Source of the DNA: a virus
Taxonomy: Duplodnaviria > Heunggongvirae > Uroviricota > Caudoviricetes
DNA: 39,373 bases
Virus record (IMG/VR): IMGVR_UViG_2534681996_000012
Direction: 5' to 3' (one strand)
Shown: in pieces, positions 5,489-34,427 of the stretch
Numbering within the stretch: the first letter of the stretch is position 1
Layout: each line of letters opens with the position of its first letter
Made by a program: the position numbers and the translations under genes
Notes under the pieces: generated by a model
Seen by the model: the letters and a program-made list of their open reading frames with translations, nothing else
Told to the model about the DNA's origin: nothing
The model's database searches: none

Positions 5489-5503
5489 TTACCTTTTAGG
5501 TAA
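5489..5503. promoter_or_regulatory. Operator-like palindrome TTACC-TTTTA-GGTAA in the tail-spike/accessory divergent region
   Basis: Perfect half-sites; 38 nt upstream of the LexA box. Confidence 0.5.
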
Positions 5504-5540
5504 TTTGCAAAACGTGCTGGATAGCAAACAAATTATTTGA

Positions 5541-5560
5541 TACTGTATAAATATACAGTT
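5541..5560 (+). promoter_or_regulatory. LexA (SOS) box
   Basis: TACTGTATAAATATACAGTT matches CTGT-N8-ACAG consensus with AT-rich centre (18/20 to TACTGTATATATATACAGTA); about 20 nt upstream of the 5581 ATG; degenerate half-box at 5470-5485. Confidence 0.8.
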
Positions 5561-5580
5561 ATTGCATGGAGAAGATTAAG

Positions 5581-5838
5581 ATGCAGCAGTATCACTATCC
5601 ACTGGAAGACGGATTTACCGAAAGGATTCACACGCCGGGAGGCGTCAAGTCACTGGTGGAGGGATCGCACTTGATGAAATTACTCCGGGATCTCGATAAG
5701 GATGGATTTAATGTCGATGGCCCACTTGCCGAACTGACTGCACTGATTAACTACGTCACCAGCTCACAGATGTCTATGCAGGATCTGCAAACACATCTCG
5801 ACTATTGTGCCGAACAATTACGAAAACAAACCAGATAA
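5581..5838 (+). CDS. Small protein sharing a C-terminal domain with the downstream Bro-N antirepressor; antirepressor-like regulator candidate
   Basis: ATG 5581 with GGAG 9 nt upstream (track start 5566 lacks RBS); IHTPGGVKSLVEGSHLMKLL...DLQTHLDYCAEQ aligns with IHSPSGVLGLTENSLLMNLL...DIQTHAEYIND of the 6152-6838 product. Confidence 0.55.
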   Translation: MQQYHYPLEDGFTERIHTPGGVKSLVEGSHLMKLLRDLDKDGFNVDGPLAELTALINYVTSSQMSMQDLQTHLDYCAEQLRKQTR

Positions 5839-5869
5839 GGTTTGCAATTGCCAAGTGGAGTGCTTATAT

Positions 5870-5884
5870 TTACCTTTGCGGTAA
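5870..5884. promoter_or_regulatory. Operator-like palindrome TTACC-TTTGC-GGTAA between the small LexA-controlled gene and the antirepressor
   Basis: Perfect half-sites; followed by hairpins and a weak terminator. Confidence 0.5.
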
Positions 5885-5978
5885 ATTTACATCGCACTCC
5901 TCTTGTGCCATAGTAATCGGGCACTGGCAAAATCCAGTGCCGGGATTGGCGTCCCGAGTTACTACAGAGGCACATATG

Positions 5979-5998
5979 CCGCATAAGCGGTTTTTTTT
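5979..5998 (+). terminator. Weak intrinsic terminator (short stem plus T8)
   Basis: CCGC-ATAA-GCGG followed by eight T; sits between the small LexA-controlled gene and the antirepressor. Confidence 0.45.
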
Positions 5999-6151
5999 AT
6001 GTGTAAAGCGCACCTATTCTATGGTGGGCTGTGTGGGGGCACCGAAAGGTGCGCCGGGTCCTTTGTAGCCGGTTACGCCAACCCTGCACAGTTCACCACC
6101 AACCGATTGGCGTCGGTAGTGGTGATTAACCTAACTACAAAGGTGATCACT

Positions 6152-6838
6152 ATGACTGCTAACGTAACCCCATCTGTTTTTCATTTTGAATCAGAAGCAA
6201 CCATTCGAGCCATTGTTATTGATGGAAATCCTTGGTTTGTTGCCAAAGACGTTATTAAAGCTCTTCAACTGACAAACCCCACTATGTCAATAAAATCTCT
6301 TGATGATGATGAAAGGGCTAAATTTAACTTAGGCCGTCAAGGCGAAACCAATATTATCAACGAGTCAGGCCTCTACACACTGATCCTCCGCTGCCGCGAT
6401 GCAGTAACACCAGGCACTATCCCCTACCGCTTTCGCAAATGGGTTACAGGTGAGGTACTTCCTCAGATCCGCCGCACCGGAAGTTACATTAAAAACTCGC
6501 TCCCGCAGGAAGAACGCATAAAGATGGTTGCCGACCAGGTAGCCAACGCCACGGCGTCAGCAGTGATGCAGGCAATGAAGATAGAGAACAAAACCTACAG
6601 CGCCCCGCTGAAGCCCGGCTACCGCAGCCTGATTCATTCTCCGTCTGGTGTTCTCGGCCTGACGGAGAACTCACTGCTGATGAATCTGCTGAACCAGTTA
6701 CAGGACGACGGGCACGACGTATCGGGCGCGGCGGCGGAGCTGACCACCATGTTCTGTTACATCGTTGGTGTGAGCAAATGCCTGCGTGATATCCAGACCC
6801 ACGCGGAGTACATCAACGACAAGGCAGGGTTCTTCTGA
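6152..6838 (+). CDS. Bro-N domain antirepressor-like protein
   Basis: N-terminal IRAIVIDGNPWFVAKDV...ESGLYTLILRC...FRKWVTGEVLPQIRRTGSY is a Bro-N signature; ATG 6152 with AAGGTGA 5 nt upstream; track extension to 5999 spans a terminator and is rejected. Confidence 0.75.
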   Translation: MTANVTPSVFHFESEATIRAIVIDGNPWFVAKDVIKALQLTNPTMSIKSLDDDERAKFNLGRQGETNIINESGLYTLILRCRDAVTPGTIPYRFRKWVTGEVLPQIRRTGSYIKNSLPQEERIKMVADQVANATASAVMQAMKIENKTYSAPLKPGYRSLIHSPSGVLGLTENSLLMNLLNQLQDDGHDVSGAAAELTTMFCYIVGVSKCLRDIQTHAEYINDKAGFF

Positions 6839-6847
6839 CGGGCGGCG

Positions 6848-6870
6848 GCACAGGGATGTGCCTTTAAAAT
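6848..6870 (+). terminator. Stem-loop after antirepressor gene
   Basis: GGCACA-GGGA-TGTGCC followed by TTTAAAAT. Confidence 0.4.
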
Positions 6871-6904
6871 AATCATTGGCGATGTGATGTAGATTCGCGT
6901 AATA

Positions 6905-6919
6905 TTACCTTAAAGGTAA
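6905..6919. promoter_or_regulatory. Operator-like palindrome TTACC-TTAAA-GGTAA upstream of the toxin/antitoxin-like pair
   Basis: Perfect half-sites, 43 nt upstream of the 6962 ATG. Confidence 0.5.
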
Positions 6920-6961
6920 ACCTGTTTTTATTTTATACCTGTAACTTACCGGAGATTAAAG

Positions 6962-7288
6962 ATGACAAAACTTGGATTCGTGATGAGAGGTCCGGTAAGA
7001 AGCGGAACTCATGCAAAGCGTAGCAAGAGTCGTATTTTTACTGGTAAGGTTGTAGCACGTAAATCAGCTATTGGCTCGTTCAATAGTGAAAATGCGGCAT
7101 TGCGCCATATTTTTATCAGCACAAAGCCAAGAGCATCCGCTGATGTGCATACAATGACTATTCCTATCACAAAGAATATAAAGCGGATAAAAAAGCTCTC
7201 ATCTGCAGAATCAAAAGAGATATCTTTCCGCCAGCTTAACTCATTAGAAACGCATATGAAGGAAGAGGAATTCGATGTTTTTGAGTGA
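6962..7288 (+). CDS. Basic small protein with acidic C-terminal tail; antitoxin candidate
   Basis: GGAG RBS; K/R-rich N-terminal half; C-terminus ...LETHMKEEEFDVFE; stop lies 12 nt after the downstream gene's ATG. Confidence 0.4.
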   Translation: MTKLGFVMRGPVRSGTHAKRSKSRIFTGKVVARKSAIGSFNSENAALRHIFISTKPRASADVHTMTIPITKNIKRIKKLSSAESKEISFRQLNSLETHMKEEEFDVFE

Positions 7289-7787
7289 GTATAGCGGGAA
7301 GGTTATACCTACTGGTGAGTTTAAAACTGATGACTTTCTGATTTCGCTAAAAGATGCTTTTAAACAACACTGGCGTCATGGTCATCATCCTGATCTGGGA
7401 AAAGATACTCTTTTTGAAAGACCAGACGAAGTATTAGGTTTCCATCTCAGAAAGGTTCATGTCAATATTGGTGAATATGCATCATATTCATACTCATGTA
7501 CTGAACAGTGTTGGGATGAGTGGTCATATGGATTGATTGATGAACAAGGAAATTACAGGCCAAAACCAACCAGTAACGCATATCTCATATATGCAGTCAA
7601 TGAAATAAGAGATGCAGCCTTACTAGCTTATTGGGACCCGCCCGCACACACCAAAGCTAACGCAAAAGTTTGGATGGATTCCGTATTGAATTTCACAAAA
7701 TTATTTCATGAACGAACGAATACAGCTCCACTTAGTAGAAATGTTTATCCGTGGGATTATTCGTACAAATCCAAAAAGCCTGCATAG
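7275..7787 (+). CDS. YafO-like toxin candidate (ribosome-dependent mRNA interferase family)
   Basis: Blocks DDFLISLKD, PDLGKDTLFERPD, FHLRKVHVNIG, AYLIYAV and ALLAYWDPPAH resemble the YafO signature as I recall it; GAGGAA RBS; AT-rich. Confidence 0.45.
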   Translation: MFLSEYSGKVIPTGEFKTDDFLISLKDAFKQHWRHGHHPDLGKDTLFERPDEVLGFHLRKVHVNIGEYASYSYSCTEQCWDEWSYGLIDEQGNYRPKPTSNAYLIYAVNEIRDAALLAYWDPPAHTKANAKVWMDSVLNFTKLFHERTNTAPLSRNVYPWDYSYKSKKPA

Positions 7788-7868
7788 TAGTTTTTTATGG
7801 ACGAAACAAAAGTCAGTGCTACACTCATTGACGCCACATTGAGGTGGATTATAGATGGAAATTTCACA

Positions 7869-8030
7869 ATGAAAAAAGCATTTGCTGCACTGTTCGTTTT
7901 GTTGTCTCTGGTAGCTTCAACTCAGGCCTTTGCCGGTCGTTGTCAGCACGACAGCGATACTGCCGCTGACGGCTCCCGCTGCGGTGGGCGTTCTGCGGAT
8001 TCCCGCCCGGGTGGCGGTGGCATTCGTTAA
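7869..8030 (+). CDS. Small secreted peptide (about 53 aa)
   Basis: Classic signal peptide MKKAFAALFVLLSLVASTQAFA then Cys/Gly/Asp-rich mature peptide; weak RBS; track start 7797 places the signal peptide internally so ATG 7869 is preferred. Confidence 0.4.
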   Translation: MKKAFAALFVLLSLVASTQAFAGRCQHDSDTAADGSRCGGRSADSRPGGGGIR

Positions 8031-8036
8031 AAACAA

Positions 8037-8052
8037 GGCCGCGAAAGCGGCC
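8037..8052. terminator. Bidirectional terminator hairpin between convergent accessory genes
   Basis: GGCCGC-GAAA-GCGGCC; TTGTTTTT follows on the minus strand and a T-rich tract 15 nt away on the plus strand. Confidence 0.6.
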
Positions 8053-8053
8053 T

Positions 8054-8065
8054 GTGACATGTCAC
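8054..8065. repeat. 12-bp perfect palindrome GTGACATGTCAC (copy 1), embedding the stop codon of the 8062-8358 gene
   Basis: Identical palindrome recurs at 28286-28297 in the same relationship to a stop codon and a terminator. Confidence 0.7.
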
Positions 8066-8358
8066 GTTCCTTTTCTGAATGATAGCCGTTCGAAAAATGA
8101 TGACATTCCACCGCAGACAATAGCAAAGATGATCCCACCAAAGAAGAGAAGGCCAGCCTGCCACCACTCCCACCGCCATACATCCACAGCGCCAACCATA
8201 CCAACAATCGCTCCAACAAATGGAATATAGCTCACGATGAAAGCAATGGGGGCTGCAATTATCCAGTGCAATCCCCACCATGATTCAAGCCCAGCCATAA
8301 TTGCTGCCAACTGAAAAAGACCAACGACGATATAAACAATGAATCCTATAGCTTGCAT
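8062..8358 (-). CDS. Small integral membrane protein, function unknown
   Basis: ATG 8358 with AGGTGA 5 nt upstream; three hydrophobic helices; lies between the last internal virion gene and the plus-strand accessory island. Confidence 0.5.
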   Translation of the reverse strand: MQAIGFIVYIVVGLFQLAAIMAGLESWWGLHWIIAAPIAFIVSYIPFVGAIVGMVGAVDVWRWEWWQAGLLFFGGIIFAIVCGGMSSFFERLSFRKGT

Positions 8359-8554
8359 GTAGTCACCTAATTTACCCAGTAAAAATAAGAGGCCTCCCCT
8401 CAATAAGGCTTGCAACAAGAACTACTCCCTGCACAACAAAGATGAACCAGCAAATAGCTTGAGTCTGAGGGTTAAGAAAATATTTGTAGCGGTCAATAAA
8501 TAACAATCCACCAGAAATTATCACACTCAAAATAATTAAAAACACAACACTTCC

Positions 8555-11029: not shown

Positions 11030-11034
11030 TTAAT

Positions 11035-19755: not shown

Positions 19756-19766
19756 ATACACTCCTG

Positions 19767-19805: not shown

Positions 19806-20141
19806 TTACACGCCCAGTTCTTTACGCTTATCTGCGATCTTCTCGCGGAGCGTTTCGGCTTTGGCGTTATGGTGTGGCTTCTCGTTAAAGAGCAATTCGT
19901 ACTCTTCACGGAGCTTATCCAGTTCACCATCATCTGACACATCGTTGATGATTTTGGTGCTGATTGCTGCCATTGACACCTTTCCTGCAACTTTTGCTTT
20001 TGCCTGTCTGGCTGCATCGTTAACAGGTTCCAGTGCGCTACCAGGCTCACCTTCGTATTCGATTTCTGCCCCCTCCGGCCACAGAGTGTTATGGATATGA
20101 GAGAGGCGCAGAACGCGGTATCTTGGTTTCTCACCTGACAT
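19806..20141 (-). CDS. Hypothetical protein
   Basis: ATG 20141 with AAGGTGA 5 nt upstream (track start 20150 is GTG). Confidence 0.5.
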   Translation of the reverse strand: MSGEKPRYRVLRLSHIHNTLWPEGAEIEYEGEPGSALEPVNDAARQAKAKVAGKVSMAAISTKIINDVSDDGELDKLREEYELLFNEKPHHNAKAETLREKIADKRKELGV

Positions 20142-20151
20142 CGATATCACC

Positions 20152-20589: not shown

Positions 20590-20604
20590 CTTCTTTCTCC
20601 ATTA

Positions 20605-20624
20605 GTGGGTCTGTTACGACCCAC
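20605..20624 (-). other. 7-bp stem-loop 17 nt downstream of major capsid stop
   Basis: GTGGGTC-N6-GACCCAC; no U-tract, so more likely a processing/stability element than a terminator. Confidence 0.4.
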
Positions 20625-20640
20625 AGGTTAATAACAGGCG

Positions 20641-21633: not shown

Positions 21634-21641
21634 TTCCTCTC

Positions 21642-22337: not shown

Positions 22338-22339
22338 GA

Positions 22340-24312: not shown

Positions 24313-24326
24313 TTCAATGACTCCGG

Positions 24327-24533: not shown

Positions 24534-24623
24534 ATCAATGACTCCGTACGCAATTAAATTATTACCAATTTAACCACATATGATTTATTTATCGTAGACA
24601 GTTGACATTTAACGCACGAATTA

Positions 24624-24638
24624 TTACCTTTCAGGTAA
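24624..24638 (+). promoter_or_regulatory. Operator-like palindrome TTACC-TTTCA-GGTAA downstream of a TTGACA hexamer
   Basis: TTGACA at 24602-24607; palindrome sits where a -10 element would be; upstream of tRNA-Arg. Confidence 0.5.
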
Positions 24639-24960: not shown

Positions 24961-25037
24961 GTGGCATTAGCTCAGTTGGACAGAGCAACCGCCTTCTAAG
25001 CGGTTGGTCGCAGGTTCGAATCCTGCATGCCACGCCA
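24961..25037 (+). tRNA. tRNA-Arg (anticodon UCU)
   Basis: Cloverleaf folds by hand: acceptor GTGGCAT/ATGCCAC, D-stem GCTC/GAGC, anticodon stem ACCGC/GCGGT with loop CTTCTAA, T-arm GCAGG-TTCGAAT-CCTGC, discriminator G and encoded CCA. Confidence 0.85.
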
Positions 25038-25200
25038 GAATCACACCTGAGGACCGTGATGCCAGAAGTTCCAGGGGCTTGGCGGTGATGGTTTCCCTTG
25101 AAGGACTACCACCGCCCTTTTTACAGCAGGACGCCATTGCGATGACTTCATGCTGTAAACCAGTACAGCCACGGAAGGCGGAACTCATTGCTTCCAGTTC

Positions 25201-25225
25201 GCCCGGTTCGTCCGGGCATTTTTTT
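25201..25225 (+). terminator. Rho-independent terminator downstream of the tRNA
   Basis: GCCCGG-TTCGT-CCGGGC followed by ATTTTTTT. Confidence 0.75.
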
Positions 25226-25230
25226 GCCTG

Positions 25231-25259
25231 ATGACCACAAATTACCTTAAAGGTATAAT
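25231..25259 (+). promoter_or_regulatory. Sigma70-like promoter (ATGACC-17-TATAAT) overlapped by operator-like TTACC-TTAAA-GGTAT
   Basis: Perfect -10 TATAAT at 25254-25259; operator variant at 25242-25256. Confidence 0.55.
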
Positions 25260-25284
25260 CATGAAAAACTTTAAGGTAATTAGT

Positions 25285-26109
25285 ATGTTCGAATCGTTCA
25301 AAGAGCTGTTTTTATCTACTGCCAATACTGCCGTGCATCGAGCTAAAAACCCTGTGCTTGGTGCTTTTGTTATGTCCTGGTGCGCCTTCAACTGGAAATC
25401 ACTTCTTTATCTATTTTTTAGCAAATCAAATATAATAGATAAAATTTCATACATCTCAGATAACAGCACATGGAAAACTGTTATGTTTTATCCATGCTTA
25501 TCTGTAATTACTATCTGCTGCCTATTACCATGGGTAAACAATATCATTAACGTATGGCAAGCAAAGCCTCTTGATAATAATGACTCAATCGAAAATCACC
25601 GGAAGGCAAGAAAAATACAACGTGAAACACGGCTACAGAGATTGCTGGCTAAAAAAGACATTACTTACGAAAAAGTAAAAACAGGCGCTGAAAAAAACAT
25701 TCAAGACATGAAAGAGGAAATAATTCTTTCAAAAGACAGAATGGGACAACTCACATCTGAATTGAAAGAGAGGGAGACAGAACTGCGCGCAGAACAAGCT
25801 CGTATTTTAGAATTATCTAAGGTTATTGATGAAACAACATCTAAACTAGAAAATCTAGAAAAAGCTCACAAAAATTTAAAAAACGAATATGAGTCCTATA
25901 AGAAAAACATTCCTTTGGCAACAAATAATACAATTGCTAATGGGCTTGTAGGTCTAAAATCATTACAAGACCTTAATGAGTCCGTAAAGAAACTTGGCGT
26001 TACTGGAATTAACAATCCAGAAATCAATACATTATTGAATAATCCTCTAGTAAATATAAATGGTGGTTTAAATTCCACCTATCAAAGAAAATTAAAAACA
26101 CAAAAGTAA
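25285..26109 (+). CDS. AT-rich accessory protein: two N-terminal TM helices plus long C-terminal coiled coil
   Basis: ATG 25285 with AAGGT 7 nt upstream (track start 25231 lies upstream of the predicted promoter); hydrophobic segments VLGAFVMSWCAFNWKSLLYLFF and VMFYPCLSVITICCLLPW; K/E-rich heptad-like C-half; stop 3 nt from the convergent terL stop. Confidence 0.55.
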   Translation: MFESFKELFLSTANTAVHRAKNPVLGAFVMSWCAFNWKSLLYLFFSKSNIIDKISYISDNSTWKTVMFYPCLSVITICCLLPWVNNIINVWQAKPLDNNDSIENHRKARKIQRETRLQRLLAKKDITYEKVKTGAEKNIQDMKEEIILSKDRMGQLTSELKERETELRAEQARILELSKVIDETTSKLENLEKAHKNLKNEYESYKKNIPLATNNTIANGLVGLKSLQDLNESVKKLGVTGINNPEINTLLNNPLVNINGGLNSTYQRKLKTQK

Positions 26110-26112
26110 AAA

Positions 26113-27582
26113 TCATTCAAATGGGTCATAGTCTGTTATAGCCCTGCCCTGCTGCTGCCGTGGGTCATTAGTTTTCTTGGCTACCGGGAAAGCAAACGTC
26201 AGCAGTAGCGCATCGCCTTTACCCGGCGAACGCCCAAGCCGCTCTTTGATATCTTCCTTCGGTTCGATAACGATTTTACCGTCCACACGAACTTTGTACT
26301 CTGCCGCCGACAGGTCATCCGCTGTTTCCTGGTCATCCAGCATCCCGCCGAGCCTCAGCCATGTCTTGCATGAGTTGAACATCTCCCCGCGCTTGTTAAG
26401 CATCTGCGGGTCAGTAGACGCGCCACCGAACGGAACAAGTTGCCATGTACGGCCCCAGCCATCACCGATTGACTTCAGACCGGTTCCGTAACCGAAGTCG
26501 ATGAACACCGCGTCAGCCTGATACTGGTCTTCAAAGTCAGCGATACGCTTCGCCATAATCAGATCGTCGGTGGTCTTGTTACCAGTCCATAGCACCTTAC
26601 TGTGCAGCCCCTGCCGCAGGTATATCACAGCGTCATCAACGCCGGAGTATGCCGGGTCAACGCCGATTATCACCGGAGCATGTGCCACCTGCGCAGCGGT
26701 GACCACCCGTTTCATTGCCTCGTCAGTAAGTCCGGTAGGGATAAACTGCAATTCAGATGCATCCGGGAATATGCCGCGCACACGGATTTTAACGAAGTCG
26801 CTGTCTTCCCCGTAGTCATCAACCCATTTCTGCAACTGCTGTTTGTTGGTGCCTTCCACCGTCCGGCTGTCAATCTGCGCAGTTTTCCAGCGGTGTTTAT
26901 ATTTGCGGAAACATTCGCGGAAACGCCCGGTGTTACGTGTAGGGTTTCCGAACGCCACCCAGATAATCTCAGTGTCTTCGTCCGTTAGCGCCCCCTCAGC
27001 AACTTCCCACACCAGATCCGCAATGTTCGACGCTTCATCGAATACCACGATGATGCGTTTGCGCTCGTTGTGTAGTCCGGCGAATGCCTCAGTGTTGTGC
27101 TCAGACCAGGGGATTGCGTCAGCTCGCCACCGCTTGTCGTGCCCAGGATCATTGCTGTACATCGCGGTAGCGGTACAGGTAAACCAGTCTTTCGTGATAG
27201 CAAGGTTCGACCACTTGATAATTTCCGGCCAGGTCTTCGTTCGTAGCTGGTTGTCGGTGTTGGCGGTCACCACGACCTTACAATCCTCGCAAGTGGACAT
27301 GCCCCAGTTGATCAGCATTGAGATGAATGCGGATTTACCAATACCGTGACCAGAAGCGCGTGCCAGCATAAGCGGCTGATAGCGCGTCTCTGGATTCTGC
27401 AGGTGATCACGTATCTCTCGGAACGCATCAGCCTGCCACTGACGTGGGCCGGTAGCATGTGCCAGTTCAGTCCCCTCTTCCCCCCACGGGAACGCATAGA
27501 GGGCATAGCCAAGCGGATCGTGAGTGAACCCTGCAATATCCTCGATCAACTGCTCTTCAGGAGATAACGCTGTATCTGTCAC
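26113..27582 (-). CDS. Terminase large subunit
   Basis: 489 aa; P-loop-like SGHGIGKS; C-terminal nuclease-like region VIIGVDPAYSGVDD; overlaps small-subunit gene by 4 nt. Confidence 0.9.
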   Translation of the reverse strand: MTDTALSPEEQLIEDIAGFTHDPLGYALYAFPWGEEGTELAHATGPRQWQADAFREIRDHLQNPETRYQPLMLARASGHGIGKSAFISMLINWGMSTCEDCKVVVTANTDNQLRTKTWPEIIKWSNLAITKDWFTCTATAMYSNDPGHDKRWRADAIPWSEHNTEAFAGLHNERKRIIVVFDEASNIADLVWEVAEGALTDEDTEIIWVAFGNPTRNTGRFRECFRKYKHRWKTAQIDSRTVEGTNKQQLQKWVDDYGEDSDFVKIRVRGIFPDASELQFIPTGLTDEAMKRVVTAAQVAHAPVIIGVDPAYSGVDDAVIYLRQGLHSKVLWTGNKTTDDLIMAKRIADFEDQYQADAVFIDFGYGTGLKSIGDGWGRTWQLVPFGGASTDPQMLNKRGEMFNSCKTWLRLGGMLDDQETADDLSAAEYKVRVDGKIVIEPKEDIKERLGRSPGKGDALLLTFAFPVAKKTNDPRQQQGRAITDYDPFE

Positions 27583-28172
27583 TGATTACCATCCTGACGT
27601 TCTTTGAGTCGCTTCCTGGCTGCTGCTATGCGATCAGCAATTGTCACATTCACATTAACATCCAGACGTTCTTTGAACGCGTTGACATCAACATGCTTAC
27701 CAATCAGCTCAAGGTTCTTCACCTTGTCAGGCCATTTAATTTTTTTGAGGATTGTCTCTATCGAATCCTCGTTCATGTTCATGATGGTCGATGACAGATC
27801 AAAGCCACTAAGCGTAGTGCGCCAGATTTTCGGCCACTCACGGATTGGTTTAAGGCTCCCATCGTCGTTGAGGATGTCGATCACGTCCATCTGGTCGATC
27901 TCCACCAGGCGCATGAGAACGTAATCAGCACTGACGCGCATTCGTTTGTTGCGCTCCTCCATCAACTCGGCAATCCGTTTTTGAATGCGTTCATCGCGCA
28001 TCATGACACTGGCTTTAACTGCCGCTGTATTTGGGGAGAATCCTGCGTTAATCGCTGCCTGAGTCTGGTTTTCAGGCGTTTTGATGTATGACTGGCAATA
28101 AGCCTCCTGCATTGCTGTTAGTGGCTTAAATTGCGTTGATTTGCGTTTATAGGTTTTAGGTTCAGCAGGCAT
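27579..28172 (-). CDS. Terminase small subunit
   Basis: Basic N-terminal region; ATG 28172 with GGTGG 5 nt upstream; track start 28253 is TTG and would place a terminator hairpin inside the ORF. Confidence 0.6.
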   Translation of the reverse strand: MPAEPKTYKRKSTQFKPLTAMQEAYCQSYIKTPENQTQAAINAGFSPNTAAVKASVMMRDERIQKRIAELMEERNKRMRVSADYVLMRLVEIDQMDVIDILNDDGSLKPIREWPKIWRTTLSGFDLSSTIMNMNEDSIETILKKIKWPDKVKNLELIGKHVDVNAFKERLDVNVNVTIADRIAAARKRLKERQDGNQ

Positions 28173-28182
28173 CATAACCACC

Positions 28183-28214
28183 GTGGTAATAGTTACCGTT
28201 GTGGTAATAGTACC
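28183..28214 (-). promoter_or_regulatory. Tandem direct repeats GTGGTAATAGT(T)ACC just upstream of the terS RBS
   Basis: Two copies 18 bp apart, each containing GGTAA-TAG-T(T)ACC; sit between a terminator and the first late gene. Confidence 0.4.
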
Positions 28215-28217
28215 ATG

Positions 28218-28244
28218 CAAAATAAAGCCGCCATAGTTGGCGGC
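28218..28244 (-). terminator. Intrinsic terminator upstream of the late (packaging) operon
   Basis: On the minus strand GCCGCCA-ACTA-TGGCGGC followed by TTTATTTT. Confidence 0.65.
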
Positions 28245-28285
28245 AGTATTCAAAACCCATCAAATTCATCATGCATAATCTACTC

Positions 28286-28297
28286 GTGACATGTCAC
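28286..28297. repeat. 12-bp perfect palindrome GTGACATGTCAC (copy 2), embedding the stop codon of the 28294-28635 gene
   Basis: Same palindrome as 8054-8065; TGA stop occupies the same positions within it. Confidence 0.7.
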
Positions 28298-28635
28298 ACT
28301 ATTAATTTCGTTTCATGCCAGCCTTTAGTCACCCAGCATTGCGAGTCACCATTACACGGGCATGAATTAACTGGAACTCTCTCGCCGCACTTACCGCAAC
28401 ATTTTCTGCTGATCGATTTTATACGCCCGCGCACGCGTGCATCATCCTGGCGGATCAGTAACGCTATATACTCACCAAATTCGTAAGGCGCACGCCCGGG
28501 GCGACGCGTGGCACAGTTACGCTCCAGCATTTCAATTTCCTGAGCATCAAGCACAATTTCCAGCTTACGCACACCAGATGCAGCTTGTCTGGCTCTCTGA
28601 GCGGCTTTGCGCTCTGCTGCTGATTTAGCCATCAA
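28294..28635 (-). CDS. Small basic protein with C-terminal Cys-rich zinc-finger-like motif; late regulator candidate
   Basis: CCGKCGERVPVNSCPCNGDSQCW; last early-region gene immediately upstream of the terminator and terS. Confidence 0.4.
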   Translation of the reverse strand: MMAKSAAERKAAQRARQAASGVRKLEIVLDAQEIEMLERNCATRRPGRAPYEFGEYIALLIRQDDARVRGRIKSISRKCCGKCGERVPVNSCPCNGDSQCWVTKGWHETKLIV

Positions 28636-28906
28636 TATTCACCTTTATCGCGTACACCTTTACCGGTTTATCGCCGAAGTGGGGATGTGTGATTGTCTTG
28701 ATTTCATATCCGTTATACGGGACGTCAATTCTGCGGCTGGAATCGTCGCGCTTCGGATATCCCTTTGTGATAATCAGGCGGTCATACTCCCGGAACATAA
28801 TTCGCTTATTCCAGTAGTCATTACACAGGCGATACTCTTCCGTTTTCTCTCCGCGAATCATGGCATCGAAGTATTCACCTTTGACGGCAAGTTGCAGGTT
28901 AGCCAC
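28625..28906 (-). CDS. Hypothetical protein
   Basis: 93-aa ORF in tightly packed minus-strand early-region array. Confidence 0.45.
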   Translation of the reverse strand: MANLQLAVKGEYFDAMIRGEKTEEYRLCNDYWNKRIMFREYDRLIITKGYPKRDDSSRRIDVPYNGYEIKTITHPHFGDKPVKVYAIKVNIDG

Positions 28907-29450
28907 GGTTAACCTCCTGCGGCGGTTCTGGTAGTGGTATCCAATTGATTACATCGCATTCAGGTATGCTGATATCATCACCAAGCCACCCTTGACCTTC
29001 AGACCAGCATTGCACGTAATACCCGTATTCTGTGTTCACTACGCACCACTGCCCGTCATCCGGCATTCGCTCACTACAACTTATCCAACCATCCGGAGTT
29101 ACCGGAGAGTTGCCAGACAACGCGTTCTGCAACCGTTCAAGCTTAACGTATTCCTGAACCCTGTTTCCGTCGCACGCTTGAATCCATTGCGCGGCCTTTT
29201 GCGCATCAGTGTGAAAGGCACAAGTGCGACCGTCATCAAATTGCATTTCGTAGAGGTCAGCAACCTGTTCAAACTGCGTGTGTGGCAACTTGTAAGTTTG
29301 GCTTACAGTCTCGACTTCCAGCGATGCCAGTGCAATTCGTGCCAGTTCCCTAAGATTTTCGCTATATGGTGAAGTATTATCACGATTGATTATGTGATTA
29401 GCTGTATCTATGAGAACTTGCTTTTGTTCTTCTCTGGTCATAGTGGTCAT
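28899..29450 (-). CDS. Hypothetical protein, DUF551-like C-terminus
   Basis: C-terminal NWIPLPEPP motif recalled from DUF551 phage proteins. Confidence 0.45.
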   Translation of the reverse strand: MTTMTREEQKQVLIDTANHIINRDNTSPYSENLRELARIALASLEVETVSQTYKLPHTQFEQVADLYEMQFDDGRTCAFHTDAQKAAQWIQACDGNRVQEYVKLERLQNALSGNSPVTPDGWISCSERMPDDGQWCVVNTEYGYYVQCWSEGQGWLGDDISIPECDVINWIPLPEPPQEVNRG

Positions 29451-29451
29451 A

Positions 29452-29751
29452 TCACATCACCCTGAAGCCGTTGCATTTACGTAAGAAATCGCAGATATAG
29501 CCCTTCATTTTTTCATGCCAATCTCGATCATTCCCATTGCACCAACCATCAGGTGGAGTCCAGTTTTCTATCAGAGCAACCATTTTCTTTGCTTTCGCCG
29601 GAGTAGCTGTTGCGGTATCGCAGTAATGACGAGTGTCAACCAACGCATCCATACCATCGATATCAAGTACGCAAAACCATGTGTGATTCGGCATTCCAAC
29701 AGATGGTATTTGTTGCCCACGTCGACGTTTATCAATAAGACATACAGTCAT
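29452..29751 (-). CDS. Hypothetical protein
   Basis: 99-aa ORF, overlapping starts/stops with neighbours. Confidence 0.4.
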   Translation of the reverse strand: MTVCLIDKRRRGQQIPSVGMPNHTWFCVLDIDGMDALVDTRHYCDTATATPAKAKKMVALIENWTPPDGWCNGNDRDWHEKMKGYICDFLRKCNGFRVM

Positions 29752-30293
29752 GGTTCCACCTTCTCTATTTGCTTAAGACCGTCTCTCACTGCATTAAGTA
29801 CGCGTTCCAGATACTGGTATTTCGGGTTTGGTGCCGTTGGCCAGTCGGCATACCACGGATCATCACCAAAGAGATTCAGCAGTTTGTTACCGACACCGAA
29901 ACAACAGCAGCTTTCTTTTACGTCATCGGCGTTTTCCGCCTCGTCCCACATTTCTCGAGCCTGTACCGCGTCGATTTCTCTCTCTCTTCGTAACTTTATG
30001 ATTTCTGACTTCACGAAAAGCAGATTTGCATCGTTGTCATCGTCGACCGTGCTTCGCAGTTGAGGGTCGAAATAGCCGATTAGATACTCGTTGCTGACCC
30101 GCTTAATGAACGTCTGCACATCATCACCGCCCATAGCAAACCAAGCCGCAGTCCACGCTTTTCCGTAGCAGGTGATGGTGATTCTTCCCTTACCAGGTTC
30201 GTAGTTTTCAATCATCACTCTAACCGGATCTAGTCGCTCTGCACCGGTTATAACGAATGACAACACATCAATCTTTTCAACCGTTACACTCAC
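29748..30293 (-). CDS. Hypothetical protein
   Basis: 181-aa ORF in nin-like region. Confidence 0.45.
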   Translation of the reverse strand: MSVTVEKIDVLSFVITGAERLDPVRVMIENYEPGKGRITITCYGKAWTAAWFAMGGDDVQTFIKRVSNEYLIGYFDPQLRSTVDDDNDANLLFVKSEIIKLRREREIDAVQAREMWDEAENADDVKESCCCFGVGNKLLNLFGDDPWYADWPTAPNPKYQYLERVLNAVRDGLKQIEKVEP

Positions 30294-30817
30294 TGGTTGC
30301 CTCCTTTGCGAAGCTCAGCGGCGAAGGCTACTGCGTGATCATGATGTTCAAGTGTGTATGCACACTCCGCAAACATCTCCACGCCCTGCGCTCGTACTTC
30401 AGCCAGGAAAGCATCGGTGGCTGGAATGGGCTTTTGTGGTGATATAGCAATGCGAATTGTCTCAAGGTCTGGATCTGTTTCCGCTGCTGGCACCTTGATA
30501 TAACCCATCTGCACCCCATTCATGATGAACCTGCGACGGTCATCACATATCGCCTTAAGCCCCGCATTCTCCGCTGCCAGCGCCGAAAACTTCTCGTGTG
30601 CCAACTTAACAGCCGCATCAGCCTGCTTAATTGATTCAATCGCTTTCTGGTGGTCTTCGGCCAGCGCATTAGCACGCACCAGTTGCACTTCCAGTTGCGT
30701 TGCCAAATCGCTGAGCAGCTTTGCCACACTACGCATATCAACGGCACCACATTCAGCTTTCAGTTCCGAAGCCATCTCATGCCCGGCGGAAACTAACCCT
30801 TTGATATTACTTTCCAT
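30290..30817 (-). CDS. Hypothetical protein
   Basis: 175-aa ORF in nin-like region. Confidence 0.45.
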   Translation of the reverse strand: MESNIKGLVSAGHEMASELKAECGAVDMRSVAKLLSDLATQLEVQLVRANALAEDHQKAIESIKQADAAVKLAHEKFSALAAENAGLKAICDDRRRFIMNGVQMGYIKVPAAETDPDLETIRIAISPQKPIPATDAFLAEVRAQGVEMFAECAYTLEHHDHAVAFAAELRKGGNQ

Positions 30818-30878
30818 CTTTACCCTCGCTTATCCACATAACTTATTGATTACATTGATAACTAAAAAGATCGTCGAT

Positions 30879-31223
30879 TCAGAACTCTTCGATGTTCCAG
30901 CCACCACCTGCTTTCTTTGGTTTAACCGTTACCCCGATGATTCGGAACGGATACTGATCTGCGGCGACTTTGGTTTTCACCCTGGCGTCGTCGGTCCAGA
31001 AACCTTTCACTTCGTGCAGTTCCATCTCGCCGGTGGCGAGCATCACAGCAAAATCGGGCGTATAGAACGTGTTGTCAGCTAACCGCAGCTTGATACCCTC
31101 AAATCGATACCAGGCTATTTCCCCTGCACGTTTACGCAGCTCAAGGTGCTGGCAATACGCAGATTCTGTTTTGTTCATCTGGCCTGTTTTGAGTCGACCA
31201 AGAGCCTGTATCTGTTTTCTCAT
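30879..31223 (-). CDS. Hypothetical protein, DUF1064-like
   Basis: 114 aa; YTPDF motif; RBS overlapped by operator-like palindrome. Confidence 0.4.
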   Translation of the reverse strand: MRKQIQALGRLKTGQMNKTESAYCQHLELRKRAGEIAWYRFEGIKLRLADNTFYTPDFAVMLATGEMELHEVKGFWTDDARVKTKVAADQYPFRIIGVTVKPKKAGGGWNIEEF

Positions 31224-31226
31224 GAT

Positions 31227-31241
31227 TTACCCCTGAGGTAA
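31227..31241. promoter_or_regulatory. Operator-like palindrome TTACC-CCTGA-GGTAA overlapping the RBS of the 30879-31223 gene
   Basis: Perfect half-sites; imperfect copy TTATC-TAACA-GGTAA at 31289-31303. Confidence 0.5.
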
Positions 31242-31340
31242 TTAAAAACCACATAAGACACGAAATCAATAGATTTTAGAATACTTTATTATCTAACAGG
31301 TAATTATCGAAACGTAAAAAAATGCGCTATCGCGCTGGTA

Positions 31341-32141
31341 TTACTTGATAAATCCTGCCGCCTTTCCTCGCCTGTATTCCTCCATCAGCCACTGCGCCGG
31401 TGTTATTCCCCCAAGGGTGGCGGCGTTAGGCATGCACCCGAAACTTCGCCCTGGTGGATGGTAAACGTCTCTCCCTGTGTCCGGAGGCGTACTCATGGGT
31501 TCTGGCTTTGCCTGTATGCTGATCACCGGATCGGGTATCTGCTGTCCGGAAGCCACCTTTTTCGCCCAATCATCGAGCAGCCTGCGCGCGTGTTTCTCAA
31601 CCTCTATCTCGCTAAGCTGGCGCTGATACATTGCACGGCGGGTATCACATACGACCCAGTACATAACCGGATGCCGCCACGGGAATCTTTCGGGACCACC
31701 AGGATATAAACTTTTTTCCTTGCTGTACCGGTGAAACTCCGTCATCACATCGTCAATGGTGACGCCAAGAACCATCTTGCTGTCTTTGCACCACTTGATG
31801 AATTGCCCTGGCGACGGCCAGAACGGAGAATCACTGGCGCGGGCGTGGCGCATACCAGCAGAAACCTGTTCACGGGTTCGGATCCCCCCTTCGGCAAACG
31901 CAGCAATCCACTGCTGTTTTGCAGCAACTTCCTGCTCTGGCGTCTTCAGGTTGGTTACCACTGCCGCCGGAAACAGTTGTTTCAACTGTTTGAAAAGGGC
32001 ATCAACAAGCCTCTCTGCTGACATGTTCACTACGTTGTCATTGTTGACGTACTGATGCTCATAACCTGACATGCGAGAAAGGGCTTCTCCGTCACGGTTT
32101 TGTATTGCGGTAAAAACGTTGTTCACAAGAAATCCTCCCAT
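31341..32141 (-). CDS. Replication protein, lambda P-like (helicase loader)
   Basis: QWIAAFAEGGIRTREQVSAGMRHARASDSPFWPSPGQFIKWC parallels lambda P QWVLAFRENGITTMEQVNAGMRVARRQNRPFLPSPGQFVAWC; start may be GTG 32126. Confidence 0.75.
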   Translation of the reverse strand: MGGFLVNNVFTAIQNRDGEALSRMSGYEHQYVNNDNVVNMSAERLVDALFKQLKQLFPAAVVTNLKTPEQEVAAKQQWIAAFAEGGIRTREQVSAGMRHARASDSPFWPSPGQFIKWCKDSKMVLGVTIDDVMTEFHRYSKEKSLYPGGPERFPWRHPVMYWVVCDTRRAMYQRQLSEIEVEKHARRLLDDWAKKVASGQQIPDPVISIQAKPEPMSTPPDTGRDVYHPPGRSFGCMPNAATLGGITPAQWLMEEYRRGKAAGFIK

Positions 32142-32938
32142 GCTTCAGGGCTGTTCCAGTGCGGAACGTTGTTATCAGGTAATGTTGATTGCTTCTGTCT
32201 GCTAATCTGCAGCCGCCTTGCCAGCTTCTGCTCCCACTGCGCCTGATGGTATGCCTTACCCTCAGCCATCCAGTAAATTCTGAACTCTGCAAGTTCCTGT
32301 GCCGTTGGCAGACTGTCCAGGTAGATCCCCTGCAATGAGCTTTTCCGAAGAAAGTCATCTGATGGTTGCCATTGTTCATGCATGACAAATTTGCCTAATT
32401 GCCCTGGCCCACCAGGAGGAACAAAGTTATTCATCACGGCGTTGTTTGCGCCGGGGTCATGAGGCACAGAATCCCCGGTTTTTGTCCTGCTCTCCCTCTC
32501 TTGGTTAAATGACTGGTTATATGACTGGTTCTGGATCCCGTTTTTGGGATCATTCAACATCCCGTTTTTGGGATCATTCAACATCCCGTTTTTGGGTATA
32601 TTCCCGTTTTCGGTAACATTACCGTTTTCGGGTTCATTGCCCCCCTCCCGGTTGCCTTTAATGTTCCCGTTTTTGGTTATATTAAGAGAGAAAACCCGCA
32701 CTCTTTTTGTCGCTCCCTTTCTCTCTCCGGTATCTGAAATAAGCCCCATTTTCATGAGCGATATAAGCCCGGCCTGCACGGTTTTTTTATTCAGGCAAGT
32801 GTCTTTAACGAGGCGTTCTATGCTGGGGTAGCAGAGGTTATATTCATCGGCTCTGTCAGCCATCGAGAGCAGTATGAGCTTTAATGATGAGCTACCTGGA
32901 TCTGTCTCCCAGGCCCAATCTGTTGCATGTCTGCTCAT
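32123..32938 (-). CDS. Replication initiator, lambda O-like, with internal origin iterons
   Basis: GGAG RBS; N-terminal HTH-like region; Asn/Gly/Pro-rich repeats encoded by DNA iterons; directly upstream of P-like gene. Confidence 0.7.
   Translation of the reverse strand: MSRHATDWAWETDPGSSSLKLILLSMADRADEYNLCYPSIERLVKDTCLNKKTVQAGLISLMKMGLISDTGERKGATKRVRVFSLNITKNGNIKGNREGGNEPENGNVTENGNIPKNGMLNDPKNGMLNDPKNGIQNQSYNQSFNQERESRTKTGDSVPHDPGANNAVMNNFVPPGGPGQLGKFVMHEQWQPSDDFLRKSSLQGIYLDSLPTAQELAEFRIYWMAEGKAYHQAQWEQKLARRLQISRQKQSTLPDNNVPHWNSPEAWEDFL
32537..32676. repeat. Origin-like iterons (six copies of CCCGTTTT(T)(C)GG) inside the O-like gene
   Basis: Two perfect 24-bp tandem copies CCCGTTTTTGGGATCATTCAACAT at 32537 and 32561, then shorter copies at 32585, 32603, 32622, 32666. 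Confidence 0.7.
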
Positions 32939-32953
32939 GATTAATCTCCGCTA

Positions 32954-33154
32954 TCAGCTTGAATGTTGTGGGGAGGAATTAATCATGATCTGCTTAATCT
33001 CAGCCCTGATGCGACGGTTTGATTCCATGGTGCACTCAACACAGTGTCCGTTGTAAACCCAACGTTCACTGTCATGTCCGTGCTTACATGGTTTTCCGGT
33101 GTAGTAGCGTTTAAGTCCGCGCTTTGCGGCATCAATACGTGTAATGATTTCCAT
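32954..33154 (-). CDS. Small Cys/His-rich protein (zinc-ribbon-like), start uncertain
   Basis: GKPCKHGH...HCVEC motif; candidate ATGs at 33154 and 33190; track start 33217 would include a terminator hairpin. Confidence 0.35.
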   Translation of the reverse strand: MEIITRIDAAKRGLKRYYTGKPCKHGHDSERWVYNGHCVECTMESNRRIRAEIKQIMINSSPQHSS

Positions 33155-33203
33155 GGTAAGCCCTGTTATTAGCATTGGGATTACGGTCATTTTGTGCTGA
33201 CAC

Positions 33204-33234
33204 AAAAAAAAGATCAACCAGATTTGGTTTTTTA
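33204..33234. terminator. Terminator-like hairpin with T/A tracts on both sides, downstream of the Cro-like gene
   Basis: AACCA-GATT-TGGTT flanked by A8 upstream and T5 downstream; operator variant TTACC-TTTGA-GGTGC follows at 33235-33249. Confidence 0.5.
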
Positions 33235-33304
33235 TTACCTTTGAGGTGCGAATAGATATGAAAAGACCGCCGGGTGGCGGTCTACAGAGGGTTGTGGCTG
33301 GATA

Positions 33305-33535
33305 TCATGAGTAGAAGAAGTATGCCAGTTCTGCTTTTGAGCGCAGCCATTGTCTTGTTTTACAGGCTTTAAAAAGCCCATTCATCAATACTTTACCTGG
33401 CATTTTGCGCTTACCTGTTAAGTGAGTCTGGATATAGTGACTCGTCGTTCCGGCTTCCTGTGCGAAGGCTTCACGCTCATCCGGAGTAAGTGCAAGCCAG
33501 TGCTTTTTGAAATCGAAATGTCCGTTATCGCTCAT
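33305..33535 (-). CDS. Cro-like HTH regulator
   Basis: 76 aa, divergent from the repressor gene across an operator-bearing intergenic region; HTH-like segment EREAFAQEAGTTSHYIQTHLTG. Confidence 0.5.
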   Translation of the reverse strand: MSDNGHFDFKKHWLALTPDEREAFAQEAGTTSHYIQTHLTGKRKMPGKVLMNGLFKACKTRQWLRSKAELAYFFYS

Positions 33536-33571
33536 AGCTATTGCCTGATATTTATTTCAGATAATAAATAT

Positions 33572-33634
33572 TCACCCATAAGGTAACAAAAATCAAGGAT
33601 AGTTACCTATGGGGTGCATTTACCTGTTGGGTAA
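33572..33634. promoter_or_regulatory. Immunity-region operator cluster (three TTACC-N5-GGTAA-type sites) with divergent promoters
   Basis: TCACC-CATAA-GGTAA 33572-33586, TTACC-TATGG-GGTGC 33603-33617, TTACC-TGTTG-GGTAA 33620-33634; plus AT-rich inverted repeat TATTTAT-N8-ATAAATA at 33549-33570. Confidence 0.6.
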
Positions 33635-33689
33635 TATTGCTTTAAATTGAATCATCTACTGATTCATATACGAGGCGATTTTCCAGAAA

Positions 33690-34274
33690 ATGAAAAGTAT
33701 CCAGGACGTCCGCAGGCAAAATCTCAACGACTTGATCGACCGTGAATTCAATGGTGTTCAGACGCGGATGGCAGAAAAACTTGGAACTCAGGCAAATCTG
33801 GTAAACCGCTGGGCTCTTGGCAAGAAGGTTATCGGCGACCAGGTTGCGCGAAAAATTGAAGCTGCCGCCAATAAACCCCGTAACTGGCTTGATATCGATC
33901 GCTCGCTTTCTCAGGAAGGTTTTCAGCCTGTCGGCCCAAGCGACATTGGTCAGCTGGCGGCTCACAACCTGGAACGCTGGATGAGCGAAAGCCGCGACCT
34001 TTCAACACAGGGAAAACTTCACCGCGCATCCGGCGTCGCCCAGGTGACAATCAGCCGCCTGTTAAACAATGAGGTCAGCGTTTCCATTTCCACCCTGGAG
34101 AATGTTGCATCCGCATTCGGGCGTCACGGCTATGAATTACTGATTCACCCGCACGACCCTGCGACCATCAACTATGACCGCTCGCGCTACGCATTGTTAC
34201 CCGAAACCGAGAAAGCAAAGATCGAAAGTTACATTGAATTTGTCATCAACCAGAACGAAAAAAACAAACAATAA
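33690..34274 (+). CDS. Prophage repressor, tandem HTH domains, no LexA-like peptidase domain
   Basis: Two XRE-type HTH-like segments (MAEKLGTQANLVNRWALGKK and LHRASGVAQVTISRLLNNE); no Ala-Gly cleavage site or Ser/Lys dyad; followed by terminator and operator-controlled promoter. Confidence 0.65.
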   Translation: MKSIQDVRRQNLNDLIDREFNGVQTRMAEKLGTQANLVNRWALGKKVIGDQVARKIEAAANKPRNWLDIDRSLSQEGFQPVGPSDIGQLAAHNLERWMSESRDLSTQGKLHRASGVAQVTISRLLNNEVSVSISTLENVASAFGRHGYELLIHPHDPATINYDRSRYALLPETEKAKIESYIEFVINQNEKNKQ

Positions 34275-34294
34275 AATCATATTTTTCAGTAAGT

Positions 34295-34320
34295 AAGCCG
34301 CCTTCTGGCGGCTTTTTTAT
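34295..34320 (+). terminator. Rho-independent terminator after repressor gene
   Basis: AAGCCGCC-TTCT-GGCGGCTT followed by TTTTTTATT. Confidence 0.75.
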
Positions 34321-34331
34321 TGTCTACACAA

Positions 34332-34408
34332 TTACCTTAAGGGTAATTTTTTTAACTCATATCTATTGACACCAAACCAAATACGCATAATCATTACCTC
34401 AACGGTAA
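34332..34408 (+). promoter_or_regulatory. Early-left promoter (TTGACA ... CATAAT) flanked by two perfect operator palindromes
   Basis: TTACC-TTAAG-GGTAA at 34332-34346; TTGACA 34366-34371; CATAAT 34386-34391; TTACC-TCAAC-GGTAA at 34394-34408. Confidence 0.6.
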
Positions 34409-34427
34409 CAGACCGAGGTAACAAGTT

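Follow-up and report, generated by a model that had tools for sequence, protein, structure and literature searches.

In the Uetakeviruses, the epsilon15-like podoviruses, parts of a lysogeny switch have been described before. A paper that cites the work on SPC32H describes its repressor Rep as a tetramer on palindromic DNA sites that is disassembled by the antirepressor Ant (PMC9638917). In vB_EcoP_ZX5, overexpression of Rep lowered the holin and endolysin transcripts by >99.9% (PMC9782041). The epsilon15 record (AY150271.2) carries seven features labelled 'protein_bind: repressor; lysogeny' at 12, 2931, 19895, 32479, 32554, 32616 and 35906, dispersed ones included, which precede terS, gp3/portal, the tailspike and RuvC among others. 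Repressor sites scattered over a genome are also known from the P1 C1 repressor, for which 22 dispersed operators were reported (PMC8546580). Here we analyzed copies of the palindrome TTACC-N5-GGTAA in the 39,373-nucleotide virus record IMGVR_UViG_2534681996_000012; "the window" denotes this whole stretch.

The window is identical over its entire length to positions 2711007-2750379 of Escherichia coli PCN033 (NZ_CP006632.1). Its first part (1-1280) is E. coli chromosome with yfgH and yfgI. The prophage has guaA, at its 3' end, as integration site and runs from ~1289 to the window end, which interrupts the integrase gene. A nucleotide comparison with two phages covered the right 9.4 kb (30000-39373) and gave ~98% identity to Escherichia phage phiv142-3 and 97% to phiV10. 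By sequence, the prophage is a phiV10/epsilon15-like Uetakevirus.

We consider it likely, with a probability of about 0.85, that A-TTACC-N5-GGTAA-T (15-17 bp) is the operator of the Uetakevirus Rep, serving repression in the lysogen and an induction led by Ant. What was observed directly comprises the motif statistics, the site positions, synteny, overlap with promoters, protein homology and the association between half-site and Rep N-terminal domain. An exact scan of the window found nine perfect sites (5489, 5870, 6905, 24624, 28193, 31227, 33620, 34332 and 34394), and with one mismatch allowed the number rose to 13 by addition of 25242, 28175, 31289 and 33572. The eight perfect sites listed by the first-pass annotation are real; that list had missed the perfect site 28193 as well as 28175 and 31289. 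No perfect site occurred in 100 dinucleotide shuffles of the window, and sites with at most one mismatch numbered 0.59 on average (maximum 3) in dinucleotide-preserving shuffles. The proposed comparison with host DNA was carried out on the flanking PCN033 chromosome (100 kb, either side), where 0 perfect and 7 one-mismatch sites were found; the motif is not equally frequent there. Two-mismatch matches in the window numbered 29. Since 27 of these lie inside genes, this class represents background. Sites 33235 and 33603, both counted as operators in the first-pass annotation, match this background statistically and therefore depend on synteny, which backs them through better sites at the same places in relatives. 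Of the 13 perfect or one-mismatch sites, 11 are in DNA annotated as non-coding. The remaining two fall within an over-long PGAP start of terS and count as non-coding as well because homologues use ATG 28172; with this start, all 13 are non-coding.

Perfect sites from seven genomes including the window (66 in total) gave the consensus A-TTACC-wwWww-GGTAA-T, with A or T as the center base in 65. A check against the annotation tables placed 61 of the 66 cleanly between genes and the other five in doubtful 5' extensions or tiny open reading frames. In the window, this 17-bp palindrome ATTACC-N5-GGTAAT is represented by nine perfect and four one-mismatch sites. A full-text literature search with the motif letters returned nothing relevant.

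These numbers bear on the idea that the motif is a by-product, be it a chance or compositional repeat, a weak hairpin terminator or a target of methylation or restriction. The phage does encode an MT-A70 methylase (37278-37928), and the palindromes can form small hairpins. Set against this are the lack of perfect sites in the 100 shuffles and in 100 kb of host DNA, and the non-coding location of 13/13 sites, as a methylation target would also fall in genes. The hairpins reach -1 to -5.4 kcal/mol, with a T-run after only one of them. A by-product is hardly credible on these grounds. The hairpin and methylation readings in particular were dropped as effectively refuted, given the weak hairpins and the confinement of the sites to the non-coding 7.8% of the prophage.

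The immunity region contains the following features:

33690-34274, plus strand: Rep, the prophage repressor, with two helix-turn-helix (HTH) domains and without an S24 peptidase domain
33305-33535, minus strand: Cro-like small regulator of 76 amino acids, divergent from rep; phrog_35 'transcriptional repressor', E 5.6e-13
33572-33634: OR cluster of sites 33572 (1 mismatch), 33603 (2 mismatches) and 33620 (perfect), spaced by 31 and 17 bp
34332-34408, plus strand: OL pair, sites 34332 and 34394, 62 bp apart
33235-33249: degenerate operator (2 mismatches), right after the cro-like terminator and upstream of replication genes

Rep matches the SPC32H repressor (PDB 5D50_A, E 4e-42) and is 100% identical to p40 of phiV10 and to Rep of vB_EcoP_ZX5. 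The transcript loss in ZX5 does not separate direct from indirect control by Rep, being compatible with either. Pfam assigned only HTH families to Rep (HTH_3 and a YdaS-like HTH), and the S24 domain of RecA-dependent self-cleavage is absent. Overall identity among Uetakevirus Reps is 42-78%; for the N-terminal domain, identity to relatives amounts to 53-89%. In four aligned Reps, the NLVNRW segment of the recognition helix is invariant. Its invariance despite the divergence of the Reps matches the common operator. The product of the Cro-like gene gave no match in a Pfam search.

The operator clusters flank rep on both sides, three sites at OR and the 62-bp pair at OL, and this layout is the same in six relatives. 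Three sites between the divergent repressor and Cro-like genes had been proposed before, as had two sites bracketing the early-left promoter, and both arrangements were borne out. At OR, operator 33572 fills the spacer of a PR-like promoter (TTGTTA-17-TATTAT, 33589-33561, minus strand) and overlaps its -35. Site 33603 sits 17 bp from 33620, which is the spacing of the perfect pairs in epsilon15 and SPC32H. At OL, sites 34332 and 34394 bracket the early-left promoter PL (TTGACA-17-AATCAT, 34366-34394). The 62-bp distance is kept in epsilon15, phiV10, SPC32H and Enterobacter phage Tyrion, and is 63 bp in Klebsiella phage BUCT711 (KpBUCT711). The equivalent of 33235 is a one-mismatch site in phiv142-3, phiV10, Tyrion and KpBUCT711, and this position reads GGTAC (1 mismatch) in ~60% of distinct relatives. 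A scan of viral contigs yielded 80 loci with a 100% identical Rep N-terminal domain. Among the 62 distinct phiV10-type OR regions obtained in this way, the variable positions inside the three OR sites comprised 6 in the spacers and 0 in the half-sites.

The scan of related prophages that had been suggested with the operator call was run on six phages, with these counts:

epsilon15: 11 perfect sites, 15 with at most one mismatch
phiV10: 8 perfect, 14 with at most one mismatch
SPC32H: 10 perfect, 18 with at most one mismatch
phiv142-3: 10 perfect, 15 with at most one mismatch
KpBUCT711: 9 perfect, 13 with at most one mismatch
Tyrion: 9 perfect, 15 with at most one mismatch

The palindrome occupies equal syntenic positions in these six relatives, which come from four host genera. 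Near rep, three sites lie between rep and the divergent small gene and two or three downstream of rep. Elsewhere, the set comprises a 62-bp pair before the DUF1064/RuvC unit and an 18-bp-spaced pair before terS. Single sites are found in the gap between gp3/portal and the accessory genes, in the gap between tail fibre or tailspike and ant, and, as GGTAT, before int. The int operator (39416-39430 in L007) lies 43 bp past the window end, upstream of int, and overlaps a TATACT -10-like hexamer; its single mismatch, GGTAT, is identical in all seven genomes. All seven annotated epsilon15 repressor sites fall exactly on palindromes. The window sites 28193, 24624, 5489 and 31227/31289 correspond to the epsilon15 sites 12, 2931, 19895 and 35906. 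Shuffles, synteny, the epsilon15 annotation and Rep homology all point to the phage operator proposed by the first-pass annotation. This call is correct and not new, as the operator and its repressor-binding role are already on record for epsilon15 and SPC32H. New points are modest: the link between half-site and N-terminal domain, the Uetakevirus-specific spread, and the operator-bearing cargo slots.

Outside the immunity region, operators and a neighboring regulator-like gene are placed as follows:

31289-31303 (distal) and 31227-31241 (proximal), minus strand: middle-operon pair, flanking TTGATT-17-TTTAAT (manual reading)
28175-28207, minus strand: terS pair, 18 bp apart, between the terminator 28244-28227 and the likely terS ATG 28172
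24624-24638: operator between gp3/portal (minus) and the tRNA-Arg/accessory gene (plus), overlapping the -10 of a rightward promoter
5489-5503: operator between the tail fibre gene (minus) and ant (plus), invariant in six phages (alignment A2)
28294-28632, minus strand: PHROG 536 'transcriptional regulator' without a Pfam match; no further gene separates it from the terminator and the terS operators

The dispersed operators thus mark the middle operon, terS and int, and adjoin the portal and tail-fibre late promoters. In five promoters, namely PL (34394), the middle promoter (31227), 5870, 6905 and 24624, the first T of TTACC is also the last base of the -10 hexamer, which places the operator at about -7 to +8. 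At 25242 (GG-TATAAT) and at int (GG-TATACT), it is the right half-site that overlaps the -10. PL and the middle promoter each have a distal second operator 62 bp upstream. Judged from the predicted promoters, these placements on promoter cores are repressing positions. The DUF1064 ATG (31223) directly follows the proximal middle operator, and the 62-bp middle pair is kept in 6/6 relatives, including those with RuvC downstream. The 24624 promoter can be read as TAGACA-18-AATTAT or as TTGACA-17-TACCTT, of which the -35 TTGACA (24602-24607) is invariant in six phages. The operator itself together with GTCAA is invariant across the six phages as well (alignment A1), and epsilon15 annotates the equivalent as 2931-2947. 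The equivalent of 5489 is annotated there as repressor site 19895-19911, and that of the terS pair as 12-27. The terS pair may act on a weak promoter or as a roadblock, and either would fit. The PGAP start of terS (27579-28253) is probably mis-called, as translation from TTG 28253 would cross the terminator and both operators. We also noticed that 28294-28632 is placed where a late Q-like regulator would sit.

Pseudomonas siphophage PseuP_224 offers an independent view of the half-site. The N-terminal domain of its cI is 39% identical to that of Rep, and the divergent cro-like protein has no similarity to the Cro-like protein of the window. TTACC-N4-GGTAA occurs on both sides of PseuP_224 cI and nowhere else in the 43-kb genome. 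In 19 related viral contigs, N4 sites lie at -73, -34 and ~+830 from the gene start, and none has another spacer. The same half-site beside homologous N-terminal domains, with unrelated cro-like proteins, indicates that the half-site travels with the Rep N-terminal domain. These comparisons link the two in phages of different types. Since PseuP_224 has a Q antiterminator and a classical OL/OR layout, the dispersal of sites over the whole genome is specific to Uetakeviruses. When the Rep N-terminal domain by itself was used to look for remote homologues, nothing but fragments of this same protein came back. The Pseudomonas clade uses N4 only, and in its N-terminal domain the recognition helix is followed by an insertion of 6 residues. 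In Klebsiella-type Uetakeviruses, a single TTACC-N4-GGTAA forms the third OL operator beside N5 sites, at ~+766 from the rep start (loci L110-L170; also L005 7262).

This linkage bears on the possibility that the dispersed sites are read by another regulator, either the 76-amino-acid Cro-like protein or a middle or late factor such as the 28294-28632 product, for turn-down or activation in the lytic cycle, with Rep acting at OR and OL only. Cro-type proteins usually use the operators of the repressor, and the cro-like gene does match a 'transcriptional repressor' PHROG. In addition, no clear promoter accompanies the terS pair, which comes after a regulator-like gene and a terminator, and the operators at the late promoters lie far upstream, as is typical of an activator. 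Nevertheless, we regard such a division of labor as improbable. The half-site accompanies the Rep N-terminal domain in Pseudomonas phages too, where the cro-like protein is unrelated, dispersed and OR/OL sites have a single common consensus including the A/T center, and the -7 to +8 register in five promoters is a repressing position.

Induction by an antirepressor would involve the region to the right of operator 5489:

5543-5558, plus strand: LexA box CTGTATAAATATACAG, a perfect CTGT-N8-ACAG, 23 nt before the ant start
5581-5838, plus strand (start 5566/5581): Ant, a small SPC32H-type antirepressor; PDB 5D50_E 'Anti-repressor protein', E 1.3e-46
5870-5884, plus strand: operator, beginning on the last base of TTGCAA-17-TATATT and abutting the -35 of TTTACA-17-CATAGT
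5921-5997, plus strand: isrK-like small RNA (sRNA), Rfam RF01394, 74.2 bits (gathering score)
6017-6103, plus strand: C4-like antisense RNA, Rfam RF01695, 79.5 bits (gathering score)
6152-6838, plus strand: Bro-N antirepressor-like gene, Pfam Bro-N 7.8e-20; PHROG 'anti-repressor Ant'

By homology, Ant would bind Rep and release it from DNA. The LexA box at ant is conserved in the six phages of alignment A2. As ant is needed while Rep is still bound, Rep cannot sensibly block it, and the position of operator 5489 upstream of the likely ant -35 is consistent with this. Other matches to the LexA core were found at 20611 and 25153. With 3 found versus 0.55 expected, and one shuffle reaching 3, this number is within chance. 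The core at 25153-25168 (CTGTAAACCAGTACAG) lies between tRNA-Arg and its terminator. Ant is ~87% identical to the SPC32H Ant by alignment count versus 42% for Rep. The C-terminal half of Rep, reported as the part that binds Ant, is the more diverged half, far more so than Ant.

Behind ant, operator 5870-5884, isrK, the C4 RNA and the Bro-N/Ant-family gene follow each other in this order. Transcription from the predicted promoter TTTACA-17-CATAGT would begin at 5921, where the isrK match also has its first base. Site 5870 is identical in phiV10 (20497) and phiv142-3 (5138), with equivalents in Tyrion and KpBUCT711. An antirepressor island had been pointed out earlier; its Bro-N gene belongs to a second module, and the antirepressor of the characterized type is the small LexA-controlled gene at 5581-5838.

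Two further operators precede accessory genes:

6905-6919, plus strand: operator right after TTGGCG-18-TAATAT, before the pair 6962-7288/YafO-like 7275-7787
25242-25256, plus strand: operator with one mismatch inside ATGACC-17-TATAAT of the membrane/coiled-coil gene 25261/25285-26109

The accessory-gene sites 5870, 6905, 24624 and 25242 overlap promoter cores, as had been proposed, and do so in a consistent geometry; they recur in relatives with different cargo. At 25242, the homologous cassette of phage EC.W1-9 has a perfect TTACCTTGAAGGTAA at the equivalent place, and KpBUCT711 has a two-mismatch version. The membrane/coiled-coil gene likely starts at ATG 25285, because homologues share the N-terminus MFE(S/Q)FKE; the 25261 start is probably mis-called. 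The homology to HEMP4, TL-2011b and phiv142-3 breaks off at 6920, at the right-hand end of operator 6905-6919. Past this point the cargo differs, with two different small-protein/YafO-family toxin pairs and, in phiv142-3, small open reading frames. TL-2011b has a promoter sequence and an operator (TTACCTCAAGGGTAA) of its own, as well as another small-protein/YafO pair. The positions compared for this mosaic junction were 6919/6920 of the window and 2572-2586 of locus L172.

Such junctions raise the question whether the dispersed copies are chiefly module boundaries for homologous cargo swaps, with regulation secondary. Three other phages lose homology exactly where 6905-6919 ends on the right, the 25242 cassette starts ~16 bp before its operator, and sites come after terminators at unit boundaries. 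However, 15 bp with a free 5-bp spacer are very short for homologous exchange, and the spacers at the same junction vary between phages. The fixed -10 register, the 62-bp pairs and the conservation of half-sites only point to protein binding. As a primary role, a swap junction is therefore very improbable, and the junction and operator ideas are compatible rather than exclusive.

The first-pass annotation had taken the operators as an accessory regulon. This holds insofar as sites at accessory promoters recur, and fails in that sites also mark terS, the middle operon and int and lie next to two late promoters; relatives moreover keep a site beside O-antigen genes, as described below. The site pattern is that of genome-wide silencing rather than of an accessory regulon. 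The suggested anti-defence or host-takeover role found no support: PADLOC run on the accessory proteins gave only weak coiled-coil matches (LmuB, DruC) for the 25261-26109 product, which we judged not meaningful.

The late units have an element of their own, TTACC-N5-AACCACAT, with exactly three perfect copies:

3153-3170, minus strand: immediately upstream of the lysis late unit
5439-5456, plus strand: immediately upstream of the tail fibre late unit
24562-24579, plus strand: immediately upstream of the gp3/portal late unit

In gene direction, the element reads CATATGTGGTT-N5-GGTAAT, followed by a -10-like hexamer. This block, which contains one Rep half-site, does not vary among six phages that represent four host genera and is probably a late promoter or the site of a late factor. 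The half-site within it hints at dual control by Rep and a late factor. In epsilon15, phiV10, SPC32H and Tyrion, a site with 0-1 mismatch separates the lysis cassette from a divergent O-antigen modification gene (L002 24704, L003 24692, L004 24782 and L006 26408). It is missing from genomes without an O-antigen gene, the window included. Phage records describe the O-antigen genes as lysogenic-conversion or superinfection-immunity functions.

Several of these observations weigh against Rep as a general silencer. The portal and tail-fibre operators lie ~60-80 bp upstream of the likely late start and overlap or face a divergent promoter. Before the lysis cassette (3095-3368) there is no full operator, only the half-site within the late element. 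Between the terminator and the operators of terS, no strong sigma-70 promoter was found, only weak candidates (TTGCAT, 17 nt, GGTAAC). The epsilon15 repressor-site annotation is itself a prediction. Finally, relatives keep an operator beside O-antigen genes said to act in lysogens, so that an operator nearby is no proof of silence in the lysogen. Some sites may be weak, activating, or serve the opposite promoter. Looping at the late promoters was considered and dropped: for the distal operators and the half-site of the late element, each spacing (62, 50 and 53 bp) is conserved, but helical phasing is not consistent among them.

Taken with these reservations, we infer that Rep occupies and represses each site, and that induction proceeds in the following way. 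In the lysogen, the N-terminal HTH domains of Rep would bind paired half-sites at about ten loci and shut promoters directly by occluding part of the promoter core. The 62-bp operator pairs at PL and the middle promoter would fit a tetramer holding two sites. Upon DNA damage, LexA would be freed from the box at 5543-5558, so that Ant is made, as homology to SPC32H suggests. Ant would then strip Rep from the DNA, and the Rep-controlled units would fire together: early-left, early-right, middle, terS, isrK/C4/Bro-N, the YafO-like pair, and tRNA-Arg with the membrane protein. This mechanism would explain the silencing of a common prophage type of E. coli, Salmonella and Klebsiella; for epsilon15 and SPC32H, the explanation is already public.

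A wider combination of these ideas is tentative and, taken as a whole, somewhat doubtful. It holds that a lambda-type repressor has spread from OL/OR to nearly all units, that two swappable cargo slots are induction-specific, and that the late units are under dual control. If so, the slots would lie after the Bro-N gene and after tRNA-Arg, with cargo such as YafO-type pairs and membrane/coiled-coil proteins. The accessory cargo behind operator-bearing promoters comprises the YafO-like toxin pair, the tRNA and the isrK/C4/Bro-N module. Should Rep truly control these promoters, the cargo would be expressed at induction only and would not serve lysogenic conversion, which would affect how prophage 'moron' and toxin-antitoxin annotations are read.

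Several known systems share single aspects with this prophage. In PseuP_224, the N-terminal domain of the repressor is homologous and TTACC/GGTAA half-sites lie on both sides of the repressor gene, but with a 4-bp instead of a 5-bp spacer; all four of its sites are at cI, none elsewhere in 43 kb, and it has the Q antiterminator. In the isrK-orf45-anrP region of Gifsy-1, the isrK sRNA, which ends in a terminator of its own, directly precedes an antirepressor-like gene, and read-through makes the mRNA (PMC4825925). The window likewise has an isrK-family sRNA directly upstream of an antirepressor-like gene. It differs in the Rep operator abutting the promoter and in the C4-like RNA between isrK and Bro-N, and no partner antiterminator of the AntQ type was identified in the window.

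One primary repressor with operators scattered genome-wide over many separate units is what the window has in common with P1 C1. The immI region of P1 has a C1-controlled promoter followed by the c4 antisense RNA, icd and ant, and in the window operator 5870-5884 is followed by the C4 RNA and the Bro-N/Ant-family gene. In contrast to the palindromes found here, the operators of P1 are 17-mers of asymmetric sequence; C1 and Rep, the latter of the HTH tetramer type, are unrelated, and the P1 prophage is a plasmid and has a late activator dedicated to this role. Many scattered repressor-site copies also silence temperate prophages in the case of the gp71 stoperators of mycobacteriophage L5 and the CIR sites of the Streptomyces phiC31 repressor. 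The L5 stoperators are asymmetric, orientation-dependent roadblocks inside transcribed regions, whereas the window sites are palindromic, intergenic and mostly on promoter cores; the terS pair after its terminator is the only roadblock-like case. Because stoperators are asymmetric intragenic roadblocks, the likeness to L5 is lower, and the working principle appears nearer to that of P1.

The closest relatives remain epsilon15 and SPC32H. With epsilon15, the window shares the palindrome at OL, terS, gp3/portal, tailspike/ant and the RuvC or DUF1064 unit. Its Rep is of the phiV10 type and 42% identical overall, epsilon15 is without the accessory-promoter sites 5870, 6905 and 25242, and the window is without a site adjacent to the lysis cassette. 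The epsilon15 record leaves its own OR sites 33341, 33358 and 33388 unannotated, which our scan finds. With the SPC32H switch (PDB 5D50, 5D4Z), the window shares homologues of Rep and Ant, the LexA box at ant, a Rep without a peptidase domain, the operator motif and the genome layout. The differences are the identities (Rep 42% overall and ~53% in the N-terminal domain, Ant ~87%) and the second antirepressor module isrK/C4/Bro-N, which SPC32H lacks. The annotated epsilon15 sites and the SPC32H Rep/Ant switch together thus appear to be the same system as that of the window, which shows every feature of it that can be read from DNA.

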